A stretch of 64,000 bases of DNA from IMG/VR virus record IMGVR_UViG_3300042934_000861, positions 1-64,000 of that record. The stretch is one strand, 5' to 3'. This DNA is from a virus. The notes below the pieces were generated by a model. The model was not told where the DNA came from. It did no database searches and saw nothing but the letters and a program-made list of their open reading frames with translations. A program made the position numbers and the translations under genes. Shown one piece after another: positions 45,532 to 52,418 of the stretch (the first letter of the stretch is position 1; each line of letters starts with the position of its first letter).

Positions 45532-46000
45532 GCGGAAGAAGCCTGGAGGTACGAGCAAGCCGAGAAAGAAACCGGTTGCTAAACCTAAAGTTGATGTGCC
45601 TGTTGACGTAATAAAAAGTAATGATTGGGTACCTCACGCAAAACAAATAGCACTCGCTCACTTGCTTGTTAATCCTGAAAACCGCGGTACAAAAGAAAAA
45701 AAAGCGGAAGAAGCCGGGATTACATACAAAACAATGTGGGTTTGGATGAAAGATCCGAATTTCGTTGCGTATCTCAATGGGTTAATACATCAATATACAG
45801 ATGCTGAGACTGCAGAGGTTTGGAAAGCACTTATTCGTAAGGCTAAAATGGGAGATGTATCGGCAATTAAGCTGTTTTTTGAAATGAAAGGCATGTACAA
45901 AGAGCAGAAGAAAGTCGAACATACCGGCGAAGGTGGCGGTCCTGTTGATACTGAGCTCAGGATTATAATTGATTACGGCGATGGTGGGGGCGATGGCTGA
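45491..46000 (+). CDS. terS: Terminase small subunit (HTH type)
   Basis: AEEAGITYKTMWVW..DPNF, GDVSAIKLFF, KVEHTG..GGP; precedes TerL. Confidence 0.85.
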   Translation: MARQKAENQEKPNKRKKPGGTSKPRKKPVAKPKVDVPVDVIKSNDWVPHAKQIALAHLLVNPENRGTKEKKAEEAGITYKTMWVWMKDPNFVAYLNGLIHQYTDAETAEVWKALIRKAKMGDVSAIKLFFEMKGMYKEQKKVEHTGEGGGPVDTELRIIIDYGDGGGDG

Positions 46001-47393
46001 GTCTGTCGTTCAGTTTAATCCTATATTTCGGGAGTTTAACAGAACGCGATGCCGGTATCGATGCGCTAAAGGCAGTGCTGGTAGTGGTAAGTCGGTTAAT
46101 ATCGCACAGGATTATATTCTAAAGCTAATGGACCCGAAGAACGCCGGTGCTAATCTTCTGGTTGTTAGAAAGATCGATGAGTCTCATCGTGATAGTACCT
46201 ACGCGGAATTAAAGGCTGCGATTAACCGGATCTGCGGTAAAGCAGCATCGGTATTGTGGACTGTTCGGCAGAGTCCGATGGAGATTGTCTGTAATCGAAC
46301 AGGCAATAAGATCATATTTCGCGGTATGAAAGACGATTCACAGCGAGAGAAGATCAAGTCGGTAAGCTTTGAGTATGGCAAGCTTGTCTTCATATGGATA
46401 GAAGAGGCCACGGAGCTCGACGAGTCTGATGTAGATATATTGGATGACCGGCTGCGTGGTATATTGCTTAATCCTTATCTGTATTATCAAATGACATTCA
46501 GCTTTAACCCTGTAAGTGCTTCACACTGGATCAAGGCTAAATACTTCGATATTACCAGTCCCGATATCTTTCCTCATCACAGCACATATAAGGACAATCG
46601 GTTCATTGATGAAGCGTATTACCGGCGTATGGAGCTCAGAAAGATCCAAGATCCTGAAGGCTATAAAGTCTATGGTGAAGGGGAATGGGGCATTACCGGT
46701 GGGCGCTTCTATGATATGTGGTCAAGTACGCTGCATGTTTGCAAGCCTTTTGCTATTCCGCAAGAGTGGACAAGGTTCCGTGCAATGGACTGGGGCAGCT
46801 ATCATCCTTATTCAGTCGGATGGTATGCGGTAGACTATGACAGTCGGTTATGGAAGTATCGGGAGTTGTATGGCTATGGTGGTAAAGCGAATGTAGGTAC
46901 CAAGGAAACGGCCAAACAGGTTGCGCTAAAGATTGCTGAAGCTGAAAAAGAAGACAATCAAATGTCATATGGTATATTGGACAGCGCTTGCTGGAATAAG
47001 ACCGGTACAGAAGGCCCCACAATTGCAGAAGAAATCAACAATGTCTTATCTGAAAAGAGTAAGACTCTTTTTATTCCCTCTACTAAGGGGCGTGAAGCTG
47101 GCGCGGAGCAGGTAAAGATTCGCTTGACCGGCTACATCGACAAGGAAGGCAAGCAAATACCTGGCATTACCTTCTTTGAAACGTGCTTTCACACGGTAAG
47201 AACATTTCCGCTGCTGACGCATGACAAGCACAATCCGGAAAAGGTTGATACCAATGGAGAAGATCACGCATTCGACGAGACCATGTACGCCTGTACGTCC
47301 CGGCCATGGACACCTGAGAAGCCGAAAGAAAAAGAGAAGCGAGAAAAGTACCGCCGTGATAAATCAGAACAGCGTAGTTGGATGGCAATATAA
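45993..47393 (+). CDS. terL: Terminase large subunit (PBSX family)
   Basis: GSAGSGKS, WIEEA, SFNP, MDWG, EDHAFDETMY. Confidence 0.95.
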   Translation: MAESVVQFNPIFREFNRTRCRYRCAKGSAGSGKSVNIAQDYILKLMDPKNAGANLLVVRKIDESHRDSTYAELKAAINRICGKAASVLWTVRQSPMEIVCNRTGNKIIFRGMKDDSQREKIKSVSFEYGKLVFIWIEEATELDESDVDILDDRLRGILLNPYLYYQMTFSFNPVSASHWIKAKYFDITSPDIFPHHSTYKDNRFIDEAYYRRMELRKIQDPEGYKVYGEGEWGITGGRFYDMWSSTLHVCKPFAIPQEWTRFRAMDWGSYHPYSVGWYAVDYDSRLWKYRELYGYGGKANVGTKETAKQVALKIAEAEKEDNQMSYGILDSACWNKTGTEGPTIAEEINNVLSEKSKTLFIPSTKGREAGAEQVKIRLTGYIDKEGKQIPGITFFETCFHTVRTFPLLTHDKHNPEKVDTNGEDHAFDETMYACTSRPWTPEKPKEKEKREKYRRDKSEQRSWMAI

Positions 47394-47475: not shown

Positions 47476-47961
47476 ATGCCAAGGGTAGTCAAGATACCAG
47501 TAGAAATAGATGCGGAGTTGTACGAACCAGGAATGGAAGATGGCTTTAAACCGGAAGATTTTTGCTATGCAGAATTCGGCATTGATTTGAGCGGGTGCTC
47601 TAAGCAAGAAAGCGCTGGTTGCGGTGGATGTAAGTGTTATCTTCCTTATATTTCAACTCTTGAGGGACCGCATTTTATCAGTCCTGGCGACTACATCATA
47701 ACAGGTGTAGAAGGAGAGCGTTATCCTATCAAGCCTGGTATATATGCGAAAACATATCGCTTGGCTGGTGGAAGTCTAGCTGTTAAGGTCTGCTGGCAAG
47801 ATGGTAGTGTTGCTGATTTTGAATGTAAGAGTGTTGTGGGTTTGGCTGACAGCATTGTTTTAAAAGGCGACGACGGTTATCAAACGACGATACCTAAAAC
47901 AGACATTCGATATATAACGCAAAAAGAGAAGGTGAAGAAAGATGAACCCAATACTGCATGA
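47476..47961 (+). CDS. Conserved phage protein (TLEG...GDYII.G..GE.YP family) with Cys insert and C-terminal extension
   Basis: KIPVEIDA, ISTLEG, PGDYIITGVEGERYPIKPGIYAKTY. Confidence 0.8.
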   Translation: MPRVVKIPVEIDAELYEPGMEDGFKPEDFCYAEFGIDLSGCSKQESAGCGGCKCYLPYISTLEGPHFISPGDYIITGVEGERYPIKPGIYAKTYRLAGGSLAVKVCWQDGSVADFECKSVVGLADSIVLKGDDGYQTTIPKTDIRYITQKEKVKKDEPNTA

Positions 47962-48085
47962 GCGTTGCGGCATGTGTAGCCGGAAACTGAAGACGCAAAA
48001 GTCGAAAGAAGATGGTTGTGGACCGGTTTGCGCAAAGAAGGCTGCTTCTGAGCGAAAAGCAAGGGAGCAGGATGCTGATGGGTAA
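47942..48085 (+). CDS. DUF6011-like zinc finger (not in track)
   Basis: CGMCSRKL....S...GCGPVCAKK. Confidence 0.7.
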   Translation: MNPILHERCGMCSRKLKTQKSKEDGCGPVCAKKAASERKAREQDADG

Positions 48086-48233
48086 GCGACGTGAGTTGTG
48101 CTGCACCAGGGAACAGTGTGCAAGGTATGCCCCTAATACCGGCTTAGGAAGATGGCCGGACAATAACCATGTTTGCCAAGTGAAAAGGAGTCCTAAGGTG
48201 GCGAATTGCCCACACAGGACAAAAAAGCAGTAA
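48078..48233 (+). CDS. Small Cys-rich protein
   Basis: GGAG RBS, five Cys. Confidence 0.5.
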   Translation: MGKRRELCCTREQCARYAPNTGLGRWPDNNHVCQVKRSPKVANCPHRTKKQ

Positions 48234-48259
48234 GCCGCTCGAATAATCGGGCGGTTTTT
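48234..48259 (+). terminator. Rho-independent terminator
   Basis: GCCGCTCGA-ATAA-TCGGGCGGT-TTTT. Confidence 0.75.
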
Positions 48260-48288
48260 ACATTTCAAGTAAAAGGAGCGACAAGGGA

Positions 48289-48660
48289 ATGCATGTTAAG
48301 GTGAAACACGATTTACTGACTACAAAGTACACAGCGGTTTATCACGAACCGGAGATTGTTATGCAGTTTGGAGCCCCGCATTGCTTTACGGTAATTGCAA
48401 GTAACGATGATGGCTCCGGCACACCATTAGCGGAGATTCACTTCCAGGAGGGGCCAATTAAAGAATTTGGCGTGAATGGGGTCTGCAATGAAGATTTGAT
48501 CGCAATGGTCATCTGCCGGTTGGAACATTTCCAGAAAGGGCCGTTTGCTTGCCGGGACAATGCCGTAGCAATCACAAAGCTTGAAGAGGGACTTCTTTGG
48601 CTGCGCAAGCGTACTATTGGCCGTGAGAATCGCGGCGTAGAGGGAACGTCAAACAAGTAA
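48289..48660 (+). CDS. tad1: Tad1-family nucleotide-signal sponge
   Basis: GAPH, IHFQEGP, GV.NEDL, RLEHFQKGPFACRDNAVAITKLEEGLLWL..R...R..RGVEGT match the Tad1 pattern. Confidence 0.85.
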   Translation: MHVKVKHDLLTTKYTAVYHEPEIVMQFGAPHCFTVIASNDDGSGTPLAEIHFQEGPIKEFGVNGVCNEDLIAMVICRLEHFQKGPFACRDNAVAITKLEEGLLWLRKRTIGRENRGVEGTSNK

Positions 48661-48675
48661 CAGGGAGGAATAACA

Positions 48676-49053
48676 ATGCAATGTCCAAAATGCCGGGGAG
48701 TTAAAATCTCTACCGAGAGAAGGCCAAATGGAAATAATATCTGCGGCAGCTGCGGCCATACGTGGCCCAATGGTCCGGCCGGGGCCGTAAGTGTAAATGC
48801 AAGCAAAGTAAGTTTAACCCAGGAAGATATCGACAAGGCCATCATAACTGAAGAATATATCAAAATGGGGAAGAAAACAGTAGTGTGTCTGTTAACCCTC
48901 AAGAATGGTTTTGAAATTGTAGGTACCGGCAGTTGTGTGGATCCTGCTAACTTCAACATGGAGATGGGCAAGACATGTGCGAGGGAAGAGGCTGTTAACC
49001 AAATCTGGAAGCTAGAAGGCTATCATTTGCAATGCCAGCATCCGGCCAGATGA
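48676..49053 (+). CDS. Phage gp49/gp66-family protein (Acb4-like sponge) with N-terminal Zn ribbon
   Basis: TVVCLLTLKNGFEIVG..SCVDPANFN.EMG...A...A...IW.LEGY; CPKC...CGSC. Confidence 0.8.
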   Translation: MQCPKCRGVKISTERRPNGNNICGSCGHTWPNGPAGAVSVNASKVSLTQEDIDKAIITEEYIKMGKKTVVCLLTLKNGFEIVGTGSCVDPANFNMEMGKTCAREEAVNQIWKLEGYHLQCQHPAR

Positions 49054-49138
49054 ACTGGCAATTCATTATGGACCGTAACGCATTAGGCCATCAATGATGG
49101 TTTATATATTAAAGCAAATACAAGGAGTGGAAACAAAC

Positions 49139-49399
49139 ATGGAAACGATTAAAGTATCAGCAGGTTCAGTTCCAGGTAAAGTAGCGGGTGCCATTGCAGC
49201 ATCAGTAAGAGAGCAAGGGCAGGCAACAGTACAGGGCATTGGTGCCGGTTCAGTTAACCAAGCGGTAAAAGCTATTGCTATCGCCCGGGGATTTTTAGCA
49301 CCTCAAGGTGTTAACCTGGTGTGCGTCCCTGGTTTTGCGGACGTTGACATTGAGGGCGAAGAGCGCACTGCAATCCGGTTTACTGTAAAGAACGGCTAA
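49139..49399 (+). CDS. spoVS: Stage V sporulation protein S
   Basis: KVS..S.P..VAGAIA, IGAGSVNQAVKAIAIARGFLAP.G..L...P.F....I.GEERTAI. Confidence 0.95.
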   Translation: METIKVSAGSVPGKVAGAIAASVREQGQATVQGIGAGSVNQAVKAIAIARGFLAPQGVNLVCVPGFADVDIEGEERTAIRFTVKNG

Positions 49400-49716
49400 T
49401 GAGTGCCGGACTCTATTTATTATTGGCCCATTACCTTGCAGACTTCCCGCTGCAGGGTGATTTCTTGGCTAGTATGAAAGGGAAGAATGTATATCTCCTT
49501 GCTGTTCATGTGCTGATCTACACATTATTGATTGGTGCATGTTTGGACTTAATGGGGATATATGCGGTATGGAAATTGTGGCTTGTTGCGCTGTCTCATA
49601 CTGCAATTGACTACTGGAAATGTCATTATGCACCAAAGGAGACTGCATTGACTGCAAGCCTGTATATCGATCAAGCCTTACATTTGCTTGTGTTGATGGT
49701 TTGCCTGTATCTTTAA
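49399..49716 (+). CDS. DUF3307 membrane protein
   Basis: AHYLADFPLQ, H...Y, HTAID, DQALH. Confidence 0.88.
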   Translation: MSAGLYLLLAHYLADFPLQGDFLASMKGKNVYLLAVHVLIYTLLIGACLDLMGIYAVWKLWLVALSHTAIDYWKCHYAPKETALTASLYIDQALHLLVLMVCLYL

Positions 49717-49758
49717 AAGGTTGGCGGCTAAAGAATGGCCGTCTATTTTATTTAATGG

Positions 49759-50172
49759 GTGGTGGTCTGGGTGGTGACGTTAAATCAGGAAGAAGAGCAG
49801 TCGTTCAAGAAGTGGTACGGAAATACTATCACCGGCATTGCACTAAAGACTGGTTTTCAACTTGATCCTAACCCTGATAGCCCAGACCATCATTATGATT
49901 ACCGGGGATTTTACAGGGCGCTGCAGGCAGGTGATCCTGCTGCAAAAACATCCGTTCAGTCTGATGGATTGGTGCATTTCACATCACCATGGAAACAGCC
50001 GGACCATCCCACCTATAAATACAAGACGCTTCTTGATCTCTTCATACAAAGCAAGTATGATCCTGCGGCTTCTGACAATGAAGCACAGGAAGTCAGTAAG
50101 CATAGTATTGTGAATCCTGAGTTGGTTCAGGAGTATTTACGTTCAAATAATCGCAAGGCTGGAGGTGGTTGA
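49759..50172 (+). CDS. Conserved hypothetical protein
   Basis: YDYRGF...HF...WK.PDHPT motif. Confidence 0.7.
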   Translation: MVVWVVTLNQEEEQSFKKWYGNTITGIALKTGFQLDPNPDSPDHHYDYRGFYRALQAGDPAAKTSVQSDGLVHFTSPWKQPDHPTYKYKTLLDLFIQSKYDPAASDNEAQEVSKHSIVNPELVQEYLRSNNRKAGGG

Positions 50173-52418
50173 GTTTGTTTGCGGTTTCTACGGATGATAT
50201 GGTGGATGTTACTCATCAGAGAAGTTTAAACTTTACGCAGTACCGAGATGAATTTAGGGCTAGCGTCGATAAGGAAAGAGATTGGCGTAATGAAGCCAAA
50301 GAAGATATTGAGTTCTTCTGCGGCAAGCAGTGGGATGACCGGGATAGGATTGCCTTAAATGAGCAAGGAAGACCCACGTTAACAATTAACCGGATCAAGC
50401 CGCTTATCAACTTGCTGTCAGGGTACCAGCGCCTTAACCGTTATGAGCCTGAGTTTTTACCGCGTACTAAGTCGGATATTGAACTATGTACGGTTCGCAA
50501 AGGTGTTACTAAGTACATCATGGACCAGTGCGATTACGCCAGTATTGAATCATCGGTATTTCTGGATGGTGCAATTTGCGGACGTGGATGGTTTGAGGTG
50601 TGCTATGAATGGGATCATTCAGCGCTTGACGGTGACATTAAGGTTAAGCGCGTATCCCCAATGGATATATATGTTGACCCCGAATCAACGGCGCCGGATT
50701 ATTCCGACGCTAAATTTCTTTTCAGGGGCAAGTGGGCTGATAAGGATGAGCTCAAGGCCGTGTATCCGGAACATGCCGATGTCATTGATTTTGCGACTAA
50801 TGAGTATGACAAAGCCGAAGATGTTGACTTTGTTGGCTTAGAACCCCTGTGGTATCAGAAGAACACTCATAAGCTCAGGCTGGTTGAACGATGGGGGCGG
50901 CGAACAGAGTCTCAACAATACTATTTGGTCGTGATCGATGGAAAAGAAAGTCTGCTCAAAAAAGAAGACATCTCAATTAATCATTTTGTAGCTGGCCAGG
51001 TGAAAAAGCCGGTGAAGCTGCCGATAACGAAGACGTATTTTACGGCGTTCATTGGTGAGCATGTTCTGGAAGAGAAAGAGTCTCCCTATCAGCATGGTAT
51101 GTTCCCATATGTGCCGTTTATTGCTTATTATCTGGGTGAAGGCGATATGCCAGCTGGTGTTGTACGCGACATTAAGGACCCGCAGCGCGAGGTAAATAAG
51201 CGCCGCAGTCAATCGCTTCATATACTCGGTACACAGGCTAATAGTGGCTGGATTTATGAACAGGGCGTGTTTGATGCTGAGCAAAAATCCAATGTGCGTA
51301 AATTTGGCTCTATGCCTGGTGTCATGATTGAAACGAAGCAGGGAATGATGACTAAGCTGCAACGTATCAATCCCCCAAATCCACCTGTCGGGTTGTTCCA
51401 GGCTGAACAGGAGGCCGTACAGGATATACGGGATATATCGGGTATCAATGAAGGTATGCTTGGTACAGATATCTCACAATCGGCAAGCGGTAAGGCGATC
51501 GAGCTCAGGCAGAGACAGGCTGTTACTCATATTGGAGCTCTCTTTGATAATCTGCGACGCGCAAAGCAACAAATACTCTTTATCATGTGGGGTAAGCGCA
51601 GTAAGAAGGGGCTGATCCAGCAGTATTATACGGATGAAAAGACGTTCCGTATTGTCGGTGATAATGGCCAGCAGGATTTTATTACAATCAATCAGCAGGT
51701 TCAGGTACAAGATCCTACGCTGGGCGTCATACACAAGATCCTCAATGATCTCAGTGTAGGTGAGTTTGATATTGTGGTGTCTGATACTCCAAGCACTGCT
51801 ACGCAACGGCAAAGCCAATTCTGGGCTCTTGTTGATGCTATATCCAAACTTGGTATTCCTGGTGAAATGGTATTTGACATGCTTATTGATATGTCGGACA
51901 TTCCTAATCGCGAGGAAATTAAGAAGCGGTGGATGGAAAGACAGGAGGCACAACAACAGTCGGCCCAAAATGCGCCTGTTAAATTAACCGGCAACATTAA
52001 TATAAAGGACATTCCTCCGGATGCTCAGGCACAAATGCTTGCTAAGATTGGCATACAAATGCAGCCGCAACAGCAGCTGAATCCATTCATTCCCCTGGTG
52101 CAGCAGTTGCCGCCCCAAGTAATTCAGGCAATTAGTCAAATGGTGCCTCAAGAATTATATGGAGCTATAAAAATGCTGTTTGGGCAGATCCCGCCTGAAC
52201 TTCAGGCGCAGGTAGGTCAAATGATTCAAGGTGTACCACCTGAGCAGGTTATTCAATTGTTTCATGATGCTGCTGTGCAGGTTATTAGTGCAGCTGGTGG
52301 CGGTCAGCAAGCGCAGCAGCCGGTTCAGCCTCAACTGCCTAACCAGCCGACATCATCACAAACTATAACACAGCCAGCTATGCGTGAAATGCTTAATGCG
52401 GCTCAAATAGGAATGTAG
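50169..52418 (+). CDS. Portal protein (P22-like)
   Basis: F..GKQW, RPTLTINRI, PYVPF, GVVRDIKDPQREVNKRRS, SGKAI, Q-rich tail. Confidence 0.93.
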   Translation: MSLFAVSTDDMVDVTHQRSLNFTQYRDEFRASVDKERDWRNEAKEDIEFFCGKQWDDRDRIALNEQGRPTLTINRIKPLINLLSGYQRLNRYEPEFLPRTKSDIELCTVRKGVTKYIMDQCDYASIESSVFLDGAICGRGWFEVCYEWDHSALDGDIKVKRVSPMDIYVDPESTAPDYSDAKFLFRGKWADKDELKAVYPEHADVIDFATNEYDKAEDVDFVGLEPLWYQKNTHKLRLVERWGRRTESQQYYLVVIDGKESLLKKEDISINHFVAGQVKKPVKLPITKTYFTAFIGEHVLEEKESPYQHGMFPYVPFIAYYLGEGDMPAGVVRDIKDPQREVNKRRSQSLHILGTQANSGWIYEQGVFDAEQKSNVRKFGSMPGVMIETKQGMMTKLQRINPPNPPVGLFQAEQEAVQDIRDISGINEGMLGTDISQSASGKAIELRQRQAVTHIGALFDNLRRAKQQILFIMWGKRSKKGLIQQYYTDEKTFRIVGDNGQQDFITINQQVQVQDPTLGVIHKILNDLSVGEFDIVVSDTPSTATQRQSQFWALVDAISKLGIPGEMVFDMLIDMSDIPNREEIKKRWMERQEAQQQSAQNAPVKLTGNINIKDIPPDAQAQMLAKIGIQMQPQQQLNPFIPLVQQLPPQVIQAISQMVPQELYGAIKMLFGQIPPELQAQVGQMIQGVPPEQVIQLFHDAAVQVISAAGGGQQAQQPVQPQLPNQPTSSQTITQPAMREMLNAAQIGM

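Follow-up and report, generated by a model that had tools for sequence, protein, structure and literature searches.

What is encoded by the small genes that separate the terminase from the portal gene in the IMG/VR virus record IMGVR_UViG_3300042934_000861, and do they act together against host defences? The window, that is the whole stretch of 64,000 nucleotides (nt) that was analysed (positions 1 to 64,000 of the record), contains this interval, which comprises eight small co-oriented genes of the + strand in 2.8 kb according to open reading frame (ORF) calls and profile searches. An original prediction made from the sequence had described an anti-defence island of signal sponges, whose neighbours were candidates for new sponges or signal-degrading enzymes. 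Pfam, PHROG and PDB searches placed all the genes named there on the + strand between the genes of the terminase large subunit (TerL) and of the portal protein. We consider it quite likely that the interval is a variable cargo slot, with Tad1 and Acb4-family sponges as its core and with the first gene, g1, as a candidate third factor. Judged by sequence, the core consists of two adjacent signal sponges, Tad1 and an Acb4-family protein headed by a zinc ribbon, encoded as follows:

48289-48660, + strand: Tad1 homologue, 123 amino acids (aa); PDB 8kbb (CmTad1), E 2.2e-38
48676-49053, + strand: zinc-ribbon-Acb4 (gp49/66) protein, 125 aa; PF13876, E 1.1e-25
48676-48768, + strand: zinc ribbon of the Acb4 gene, residues 1-31
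48814-49032, + strand: PF13876 domain of the Acb4 gene, residues 47-119

The Tad1 homologue aligns with chain 8kbb_A over residues 2-121 of 123, and it also matches CbTad1 (7uav_A, E 1e-14) and phrog_2428 (E 2.1e-44). In the accessible part of Li et al., the pocket for glycocyclic ADP-ribose (gcADPR) and cyclic dinucleotides is formed by the residues F82, N92, R109 and R113 of CbTad1, the trinucleotide site contains R88 and T95 of CmTad1, the hexamer interface of CmTad1 includes K96, E99, W103 and K106, and Tad1 binds cyclic triadenylate (cA3) as well as gcADPR. The ligand residues were mapped by hand from the PDB alignments, whose numbering proved sound, as each residue cited was the expected letter in the PDB chains. 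The pocket is kept in the window protein as F81, N91, R108 and R112, which are conserved in 58-59 of 59 distinct homologues from viral contigs, and the trinucleotide site is kept as R89 and T96. Concerning the interface, K97, E100, W104 and K107 are present, with the changes Q98->E and M102->L. Across the same homologues, the six named ligand residues are conserved in 52-59 of 59 sequences, and in 50-59 of 59 when the interface is included. By analogy with the characterised proteins, the window Tad1 is expected to assemble into a hexamer and to sequester the Thoeris signal gcADPR and cyclic di- and trinucleotides.

The adjacent gene encodes a protein with a PF13876 domain (90.3 bits for a cut-off of 27) that matches Acb4 of phage SPO1 (9e4w_A, E 2e-7). 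The link between the gp49/66 family and Acb4, a sponge acting on CBASS (cyclic oligonucleotide-based antiphage signalling system), had been put forward in the original prediction and could be verified: PDB entry 9e4w is named 'anti-CBASS 4', and the sections of Chang et al. at hand equate Acb4 with PF13876, of which it is the founder. These sections list K36, F48, E49, V56, Y57, F62, N63, I66, T70 and K81 as the contacts of 3'3'-cyclic GMP-AMP (cGAMP). Since six of the ten contacts are identical in the window protein (K36, F48, E49, F62, N63 and K81, corresponding to K67, F79, E80, F93, N94 and K112) and two are conservatively replaced (V56->C and I66->M), the alignment indicates that a cGAMP-like dinucleotide is likely bound. 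By analogy with SPO1 Acb4, the protein should form a tetramer sequestering cGAMP-type CBASS signals. The PDB alignments therefore uphold the claim that a Tad1 gene and an Acb4-family gene stand side by side with their ligand-contact residues largely kept.

At its N-terminus, the window Acb4 homologue has an additional zinc ribbon of about 31 aa with four cysteines (Zn_Ribbon_TF, E 2.7e-5, below the cut-off). Close relatives of the Acb4 domain, such as P0191 (87 aa, 73% identity), are devoid of this ribbon. The metagenome protein P0200 (120 aa) begins with a ribbon 84% identical over about 31 aa, which heads a Tad2 domain (PF11195 and PF08271). The same ribbon is thus found on Acb4 and on Tad2, which identifies it as a module swapped between unrelated sponge domains.

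The surroundings of the two sponge genes were compared with those in related phages. The full virus record has 81,704 bases and encodes a tyrosine integrase (PF00589), therefore the phage is temperate. Two DNA runs contain the stretch, both from soil metagenomes and one of them perhaps its source, whereas no RNA run was listed for it. A sister prophage with the same backbone, L001, is present in Anaerospora hongkongensis DSM 15969 (L001 and L002, its IMG/VR copy, were taken as one element), and the host of the window phage is probably a spore-forming Negativicute. The other features of the window at this place are:

45969-47393, + strand: TerL, left flank; PF04466, E 2.5e-44; 95% aa identity to L001
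47476-47961, + strand: g1, 161 aa, 'TLEG/GDYII' protein; phrog_419, E 1.3e-16; PF14083 below threshold
47942-48085, + strand: g2, 47 aa, DUF6011 protein resembling a four-Cys zinc finger; PF19474, E 7.3e-10, 38.7 bits for a cut-off of 26.6
48078-48233, + strand: g2b, 51 aa, Cys/His-rich, newly called; conserved in L001
48232-48257, + strand: hairpin T1, terminator-like with a T-rich tail; 11-bp stem, -16.8 kcal/mol
49139-49399, + strand: SpoVS homologue, 86 aa; PF04232, E 5.6e-35
49399-49716, + strand: DUF3307 membrane protein, 105 aa; PF11750, E 8.5e-17
49723-49743, + strand: hairpin T2, terminator-like with a T-rich tail; 8-bp stem, -13.5 kcal/mol
49759-50172, + strand: g7, orphan of about 133-137 aa, likely GTG start near 49771; no family match
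50169-52418, + strand: portal protein, right flank; PF16510 (P22_portal), E 1.2e-141

All the ORFs of the interval with a counterpart in L001, that is all but DUF3307, display a ratio of nonsynonymous to synonymous polymorphism (pN/pS) of 0.08-0.18 for a synonymous divergence of 0.42-0.76. Such purifying selection indicates that they are real genes and not chance ORFs. The gene order in L001 is TerL, g1, g2, g2b, Tad1, an AAA_33 P-loop gene, Acb4, a 73-aa ORF, SpoVS, g7 and portal, and DUF3307 is absent. The AAA_33 gene (L001:8506-9024, 172 aa, E 7.9e-20), which is kinase-like and lies between Tad1 and Acb4, and the 73-aa ORF after Acb4 are both missing from the window. In the phage L003, TerL is directly followed by SpoVS, by five small ORFs without Pfam match and by the portal gene; its Tad1 is located after the portal and is fused to a PGDYG-like domain, the domain also present in g1. 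SpoVS is the only gene common to the TerL-portal intervals of the window, L001 and L003, thus the interval is a variable cargo slot and not a fixed operon. The view of the interval as an accessory slot was hereby supported.

The DUF3307 gene corresponds to a single-gene insertion or deletion with sharp borders (49380-49760 in the window, L001:9935-10010 in the sister prophage). In L001 the stop codon of SpoVS abuts a hairpin homologous to T2, and in the window DUF3307 separates the SpoVS stop from this same hairpin. The hairpin T1 lies about 30 nt before the start of Tad1, and its stem is kept in L001 despite changes in the loop. Both hairpins are therefore conserved in the two phages and bracket Tad1, Acb4, SpoVS and, where present, DUF3307. 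These four genes would constitute one block between two conserved terminator-like hairpins, inside the late packaging and head operon. No promoter-like site was found between T1 and Tad1, and the 28 promoter-like sites detected are no excess over the 24.3 expected from shuffled sequence.

Concerning g1, a family alignment reveals that residues 1 to about 97 correspond to a PGDYG-like domain, made of two conserved blocks around a Cys-rich insert. The Pfam family PGDYG (PF14083) matches g1 at E 0.0015 with 19.3 bits, below the gathering score of 27. Among 55 relatives of g1, 23 match PF14083 (best E 1.2e-35), and the top fold matches in BFVD are named 'PGDYG protein'. As the relatives match PF14083 and g1 itself stays below the threshold, we call the domain PGDYG-like and consider it as a wider family. 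A profile of the g1 family recovered 20,881 protein clusters at E <= 0.001, and tblastn found 408 phage records. The family phrog_419 matches g1 with its N-terminal part and the Acb4 domain with its C-terminal part, which indirectly suggests a fusion of both domains. The giant proteins P0048 (3743 aa), P0049 and P0050 contain 13-30 tandem stretches matching the C-terminal half of the PGDYG-like profile.

The AlphaFold2 (AF2) models have a confident core, with a pLDDT of 84 for g1 and of 80 for the other model. In the predicted structure, the C-terminal residues 98-157 of g1 fold as a small Sm/SH3-like barrel with a VIA Z score of 5.4 to Hfq, a common arrangement. Searched against the PDB with Foldseek, the whole g1 model gave nothing at E <= 0.001 and the model of its N-terminal domain a best E of 0.56; the best VIA Z for the latter was 2.9 (root mean square deviation 3.3 over 44 residues), and no sponge was listed. 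The g1 sequence had no PDB match at E <= 1. With the PGDYG profile, the best PDB chain was SAMHD1 (E 0.16), taken as a chance match. A search of the Atlas with the g1 family returned unnamed phage clusters only. No publication on PGDYG or PF14083 was found, in a search that did not extend to the supplementary tables of Tal et al. and Chang et al.

The genomic associations of the PGDYG-like domain were examined from both sides. A scan of IMG/VR for Tad1 gave 71 loci, and the comparisons of loci use 72 Tad1 loci. The PGDYG sample is composed of the best 80 of at least 526 viral loci, for which 150 of 153 immediate neighbours were scanned; fusions were sought in the 10 longest of 78 PGDYG ORFs. 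PGDYG-like profile matches occur in 7 of the 72 Tad1 loci, all within 1.8 kb of Tad1 and none further, and the flanks within 1.8 kb represent 34% of the sequence around the Tad1 loci. The domain is fused in frame to Tad1 in L003 and L048 (the latter cut by a contig end) and to Tad2 in P0004, L114 and L137. An Acb4 gene adjoins a PGDYG-like gene in L117, and L008 contains PGDYG, Tad1 and DUF3307 in a row.

From the 150 PGDYG neighbours, we observe that the commonest Pfam family is ThsB_TIR (6 cases), followed by DUF4231 and SLATT (4 each). Among the 80 loci, 9 have a ThsB-like TIR gene together with a SLATT gene next to PGDYG, versus none of the 72 Tad1 loci (Fisher p 0.003). When only distinct loci are retained (L125 and L128 being duplicates), the values are 8 of 79 and 0 of 60 (p 0.01). 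The TIR proteins belong to PF08937 and match the ThsB models of PADLOC at E 1e-13 to 1e-14. The TIR, SLATT and PGDYG genes are found in two gene orders, and the TIRs form two groups without mutual BLAST match at 1e-5. In total, 12 of the 80 sampled PGDYG loci are tied to nucleotide-signalling immunity or counter-immunity.

The nine loci with TIR and SLATT are L091, L094, L096, L116, L125, L128, L129, L130 and L132, with PGDYG around position 3000 of each. Here the PGDYG-like genes are minimal (61-86 aa) and stand near prophage ends, beside the ThsB-like TIR gene or between it and a SLATT/DUF4231 gene on the opposite strand. In L094 the minimal PGDYG gene is next to a gene with an HExxH motif resembling ImmA. 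The pairing of TIR with SLATT corresponds, in the available text of bioRxiv 10.64898/2025.12.03.692087, to type VII Thoeris, with canonical cADPR (cyclic ADP-ribose) as signal. A minimal PGDYG protein could serve as an antidote to, or as a regulator of, a type VII-like Thoeris system encoded by the same phage. PADLOC contained no model matching g1, SpoVS, DUF3307, g7 or the minimal PGDYG proteins. The sponge families Tad2 (PF11195), Sequestin (PF21825), PF24729 (Acb2/Tad1 hairpin) and Acb4 (PF13876) did not match g1, g2, SpoVS, DUF3307 and g7 at E <= 0.1, nor g2b at E <= 0.01.

The proposal that the neighbours of the two sponges are further counter-defence candidates could be retained in part: it stands for g1, owing to its recurrent links to Tad1, Tad2, Acb4 and TIR-SLATT pairs, and more weakly for DUF3307, which directly follows Tad1 in two other loci (L008 and L042). 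The DUF3307 protein matches PF11750 (61.8 bits for a cut-off of 23) and phrog_2470 (E 1.5e-21), and it displays conserved His and Asp residues in predicted helices. Relatives of the window protein were found in 12 of 50,697 phage records by tblastn, a low-sensitivity count. As such relatives are rare, the repeated position after Tad1 is unlikely to be due to chance, and the three cases may share descent. We therefore regard DUF3307 as a weaker counter-defence candidate than g1. No publication linking DUF3307 or PF11750 to this topic was found.

The proposal did not hold for SpoVS, DUF6011, g2b and g7 as sponge or enzyme candidates: SpoVS is linked to the phage lineage, and no association with defence or counter-defence genes was found for any of the four. 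They would best be read as unrelated cargo or as genes of the head module. The SpoVS homologue (PF04232, 119.4 bits for a cut-off of 24; PDB 2eh1_A, E 2.7e-25) follows the phage lineage and not Tad1, and it is likely a sporulation-related cargo for host takeover in phages of spore formers. The DUF6011 protein g2 is 89% identical to its L001 counterpart, with a pN/pS of 0.09. The gene g2b fills an apparent gap of 204 nt before Tad1 and is preceded, 10 nt upstream, by the Shine-Dalgarno-like motif AAGGGAG; its product has no Pfam match and is 84% identical to that of L001 (pS 0.67, pN 0.07, pN/pS 0.10). Only one relative was detected for g7, P0001 of Anaerospora hongkongensis (90% identity); its pN/pS against L001 is 0.08, and g7 had no match in Pfam or PHROG (E <= 0.1), in PDB sequences or phage genomes searched by tblastn (E <= 1), or in the Atlas. 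Because it lies behind T2, overlaps the portal start and is as conserved as the portal (91% versus 87% identity), g7 is probably a gene of the head operon and not cargo.

For the neighbourhoods of Tad1 at large, ORFs were called greedily by length, and ORFs below 50 aa and identical duplicates were left out of the tallies. The most frequent neighbour is the portal (3 cases), followed by minor capsid, scaffold, terminase, RtcB, WDGH, RecA, PF13876, DUF3307 and others (2 each). Among 113 non-identical immediate neighbours, WDGH (PF25311), Nuc_deoxyri_tr2 (PF15891), RtcB and DUF2292 are represented by two cases each. Genes similar to nucleoside deoxyribosyltransferases lie on the flanks of both Tad1 and the PGDYG-like gene in L015. 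Besides the L001/L002 lineage, an Acb4 gene directly precedes Tad1 in L025 and L036.

The Tad1 domain is also found in longer proteins. In chain I of PDB 8y6v ('gp184', 230 aa), phrog_23843 and phrog_22140, the C-terminal part resembles Tad1 (E 3.7e-10 to 1e-11), and the label 'structural protein' is given to Tad1 homologues in several Bacillus phage records. An N-terminal RyR domain (PF02026) is fused to Tad1 in L006:3-695 and L014:3163-3834, with 30.8 and 36.5 bits for a cut-off of 27.4. A small front domain with the motif 'YVGxK...GY..W.PKDxFE' is present on Tad1 in L021:315-878 and L049:251-823, and on Acb4 in L025:5529-5993, L036:628-1083 and P0199. A kinship of this front domain with the PGDYG-like domain was not supported by hhalign, which gave probabilities of 0.4% and 9.8% and aligned only a C-terminal motif of 13-15 columns.

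Several observations weigh against a slot with two sponges at its core and g1 as a third factor. In the Acb4 homologue, the two remaining cGAMP contacts, which bind phosphate, are changed (Y57->V and T70->C), and the ligand may differ. The 113 immediate neighbours of Tad1 are heterogeneous, no family exceeding 3 of 113, which speaks against the Tad1 neighbourhood as a conserved island. The adjacency of Tad1 and Acb4 was not enriched in the sample, with 4 of 72 Tad1 loci versus 1 of 80 control loci (p 0.19), and is not established as a rule. Neither a ThsB-type TIR nor SMODS was found in the sister lysogen. On the supporting side, 9 of 40 genomes of the host order carry a ThsB-type TIR and 3 of 40 carry SMODS, which makes TIR-based systems a pressure that these phages could realistically face. 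For g1, mostly acidic residues are conserved in the PGDYG-like domain, which is not what would be expected of a nucleotide pocket. About 85% of the sampled PGDYG loci have no link to nucleotide-signalling immunity, Tad1 occurs in none of the 80, and the 11 chromosomal TIR regions looked at in the host order contained no PGDYG gene. The family is huge and promiscuous, with a sponge domain on only 1 of 55 longer members, and the nine TIR-SLATT loci fall into few lineages and are not independent. Co-location in hotspots alone could give the neighbourhood signals, though not the fusions.

In a rival explanation, only Tad1 and Acb4 would be counter-defence proteins and the PGDYG-like domain would be a general small module, for example serving oligomerisation or forming a nucleic-acid-binding barrel, whose links result from its abundance and from hotspots. 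We take this explanation as a serious contender that falls somewhat short of probable. The 20,881 clusters agree with it, as do the other PGDYG partners (HTH_8, an Xre-like helix-turn-helix, DUF551 and a QueE-like protein), the near absence of sponge domains and the empty counts just given, and the location of the TIR-SLATT loci near prophage ends, beside lysogeny genes. However, hotspots leave the fusions to Tad1 and Tad2 and the adjacency to Acb4 unexplained, among the recognised fused partners only Tad2 recurs (3 cases, versus a single case for every other one), and the TIR-SLATT adjacency is seen in two gene orders, the TIRs involved having no mutual BLAST match at 1e-5. Judged by association only, g1 would be the most likely third counter-defence factor, with TIR/Thoeris signalling as its target, and it might act by binding a cADPR-type signal or the TIR protein. 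We propose such an action of g1 tentatively, as a possibility below an even balance. It appears improbable that g1 and the PGDYG-like proteins block TIR directly, as do Tad3-Tad7, and are no sponges. The minimal genes immediately beside a ThsB-like TIR in 9 of 80 loci and the conserved surface, which is acidic and not basic in the alignment, speak for a direct block, and direct ThsB binders exist according to the accessible part of PMC13728456; the fusion to sponge domains, on the other hand, fits the 'second sponge domain' pattern by which Sequestin was discovered, as described in the part of Tal et al. consulted.

A bolder version, which we regard as rather unlikely, would make the PGDYG-like domain a widespread phage anti-TIR/Thoeris factor (sponge or TIR blocker) that is kept beside the prophages' own TIR-SLATT genes, and the trio of PGDYG-like gene, Tad1 and DUF3307 a mobile anti-Thoeris cassette. 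If this were true, a prophage with its own TIR-SLATT pair may keep PGDYG to switch the system off when turning lytic, and the DUF3307 protein of the trio (window and L008) would counter membrane-acting Thoeris effectors. We find it highly improbable that all eight genes of the interval evolved together as a single anti-defence island and that each neighbour acts as a sponge or a signal-degrading enzyme, as a wide reading of the original prediction would have it. In favour of such an island, the genes are small, share one orientation and leave little space between them, several contain Cys-rich motifs of zinc type, and two belong to proven sponge families; but SpoVS remains in the L003 slot though Tad1 is elsewhere, g7 follows T2 and runs into the portal start, sister phages differ in gene content, and searches of Pfam, PHROGs and PDB sequences matched none of SpoVS, DUF6011, g2b and g7 to a sponge family. 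A drift of the window Tad1 and Acb4 to other ligands or roles, for example cA3 or cA4 (cyclic tetraadenylate) of type III CRISPR or a structural role, is very doubtful. The two changed Acb4 contacts, the position of the genes in a late operon and the phage records that annotate Tad1 homologues as structural point in this direction; these annotations are, however, untested labels, all six named ligand residues of Tad1 are kept, and Tad1 is known to bind cA3 in addition to gcADPR.

The cargo slot with two core sponges and g1 as candidate can be compared with known systems. The window Tad1 resembles the characterised proteins (CmTad1, 8KBB-8KBD; CbTad1, 7UAV/7UAW; SBSphiJ7) by its full-length homology, its pocket, its trinucleotide site and most interface residues. 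It differs from them by an identity of at most about 50-60% and by its location in the late packaging and head operon of a temperate phage of Negativicute type. The second protein shares with SPO1 Acb4 (9E4W) the PF13876 domain and six of ten contacts, including K36, F48, E49 and K81, whereas Y57 and T70 are replaced by V and C and the zinc ribbon is added at the N-terminus. Sections 7-8 of Chang et al. mention 'extensions' in some Acb4 homologues and describe no zinc ribbon. Both sponges add a member to a known family and are nothing unusual by 2026 standards. The zinc-ribbon Acb4, the recurrent PGDYG-like partner and the DUF3307 companion, a membrane protein travelling with Tad1, go beyond the published descriptions found, supplements being outside their range.

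Concerning the phage-borne TIR genes, type VII Thoeris is composed of the ThsB TIR and the SLATT effector ThsH, and this two-gene layout is matched by the TIR and DUF4231/SLATT genes beside the minimal PGDYG genes. These pairs are located in other viral contigs and not in the window, and the likeness concerns domain content only. A third small gene is not described for type VII Thoeris in the available text of bioRxiv 10.64898/2025.12.03.692087. Tad3-Tad7, direct ThsB binders in the accessible part of PMC13728456, and TadIV-1, a sponge of N7-cADPR, are likewise small proteins of phages and stop Thoeris at the level of the TIR or of its signal, as proposed here for the PGDYG-like proteins; the comparison with Tad3-8 is one of descriptions and not of sequences.

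A precedent is given by the fusions between sponges, Acb4 with Tad2 and Sequestin with Tad2 or Acb4. In the part of the Tal et al. 2025 preprint consulted, Sequestin (PF21825) was found through its fusions to the known sponges Tad2 and Acb4, and the same logic applies to the PGDYG-like domain, which occurs in fusions with Tad1 and with Tad2 and also has a link to Acb4. The folds differ, Sequestin being helical and the PGDYG-like domain mostly beta, without PDB fold match. Most PGDYG-like fusions probably stay below the gathering score of PF14083 and would thus be missed by queries of Pfam architectures. A domain family of about 21,000 clusters and of unknown function, physically associated with three unrelated sponge families as well as with a Thoeris-type operon carried by phages, is therefore a candidate anti-Thoeris family. 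The swappable N-terminal modules, that is the zinc ribbon on Acb4 and Tad2 and the RyR, PGDYG-like and third small domains on Tad1, suggest in addition a layer of sponge regulation or targeting. The evidence on the PGDYG-like domain is of the same kind as that which led to Sequestin.

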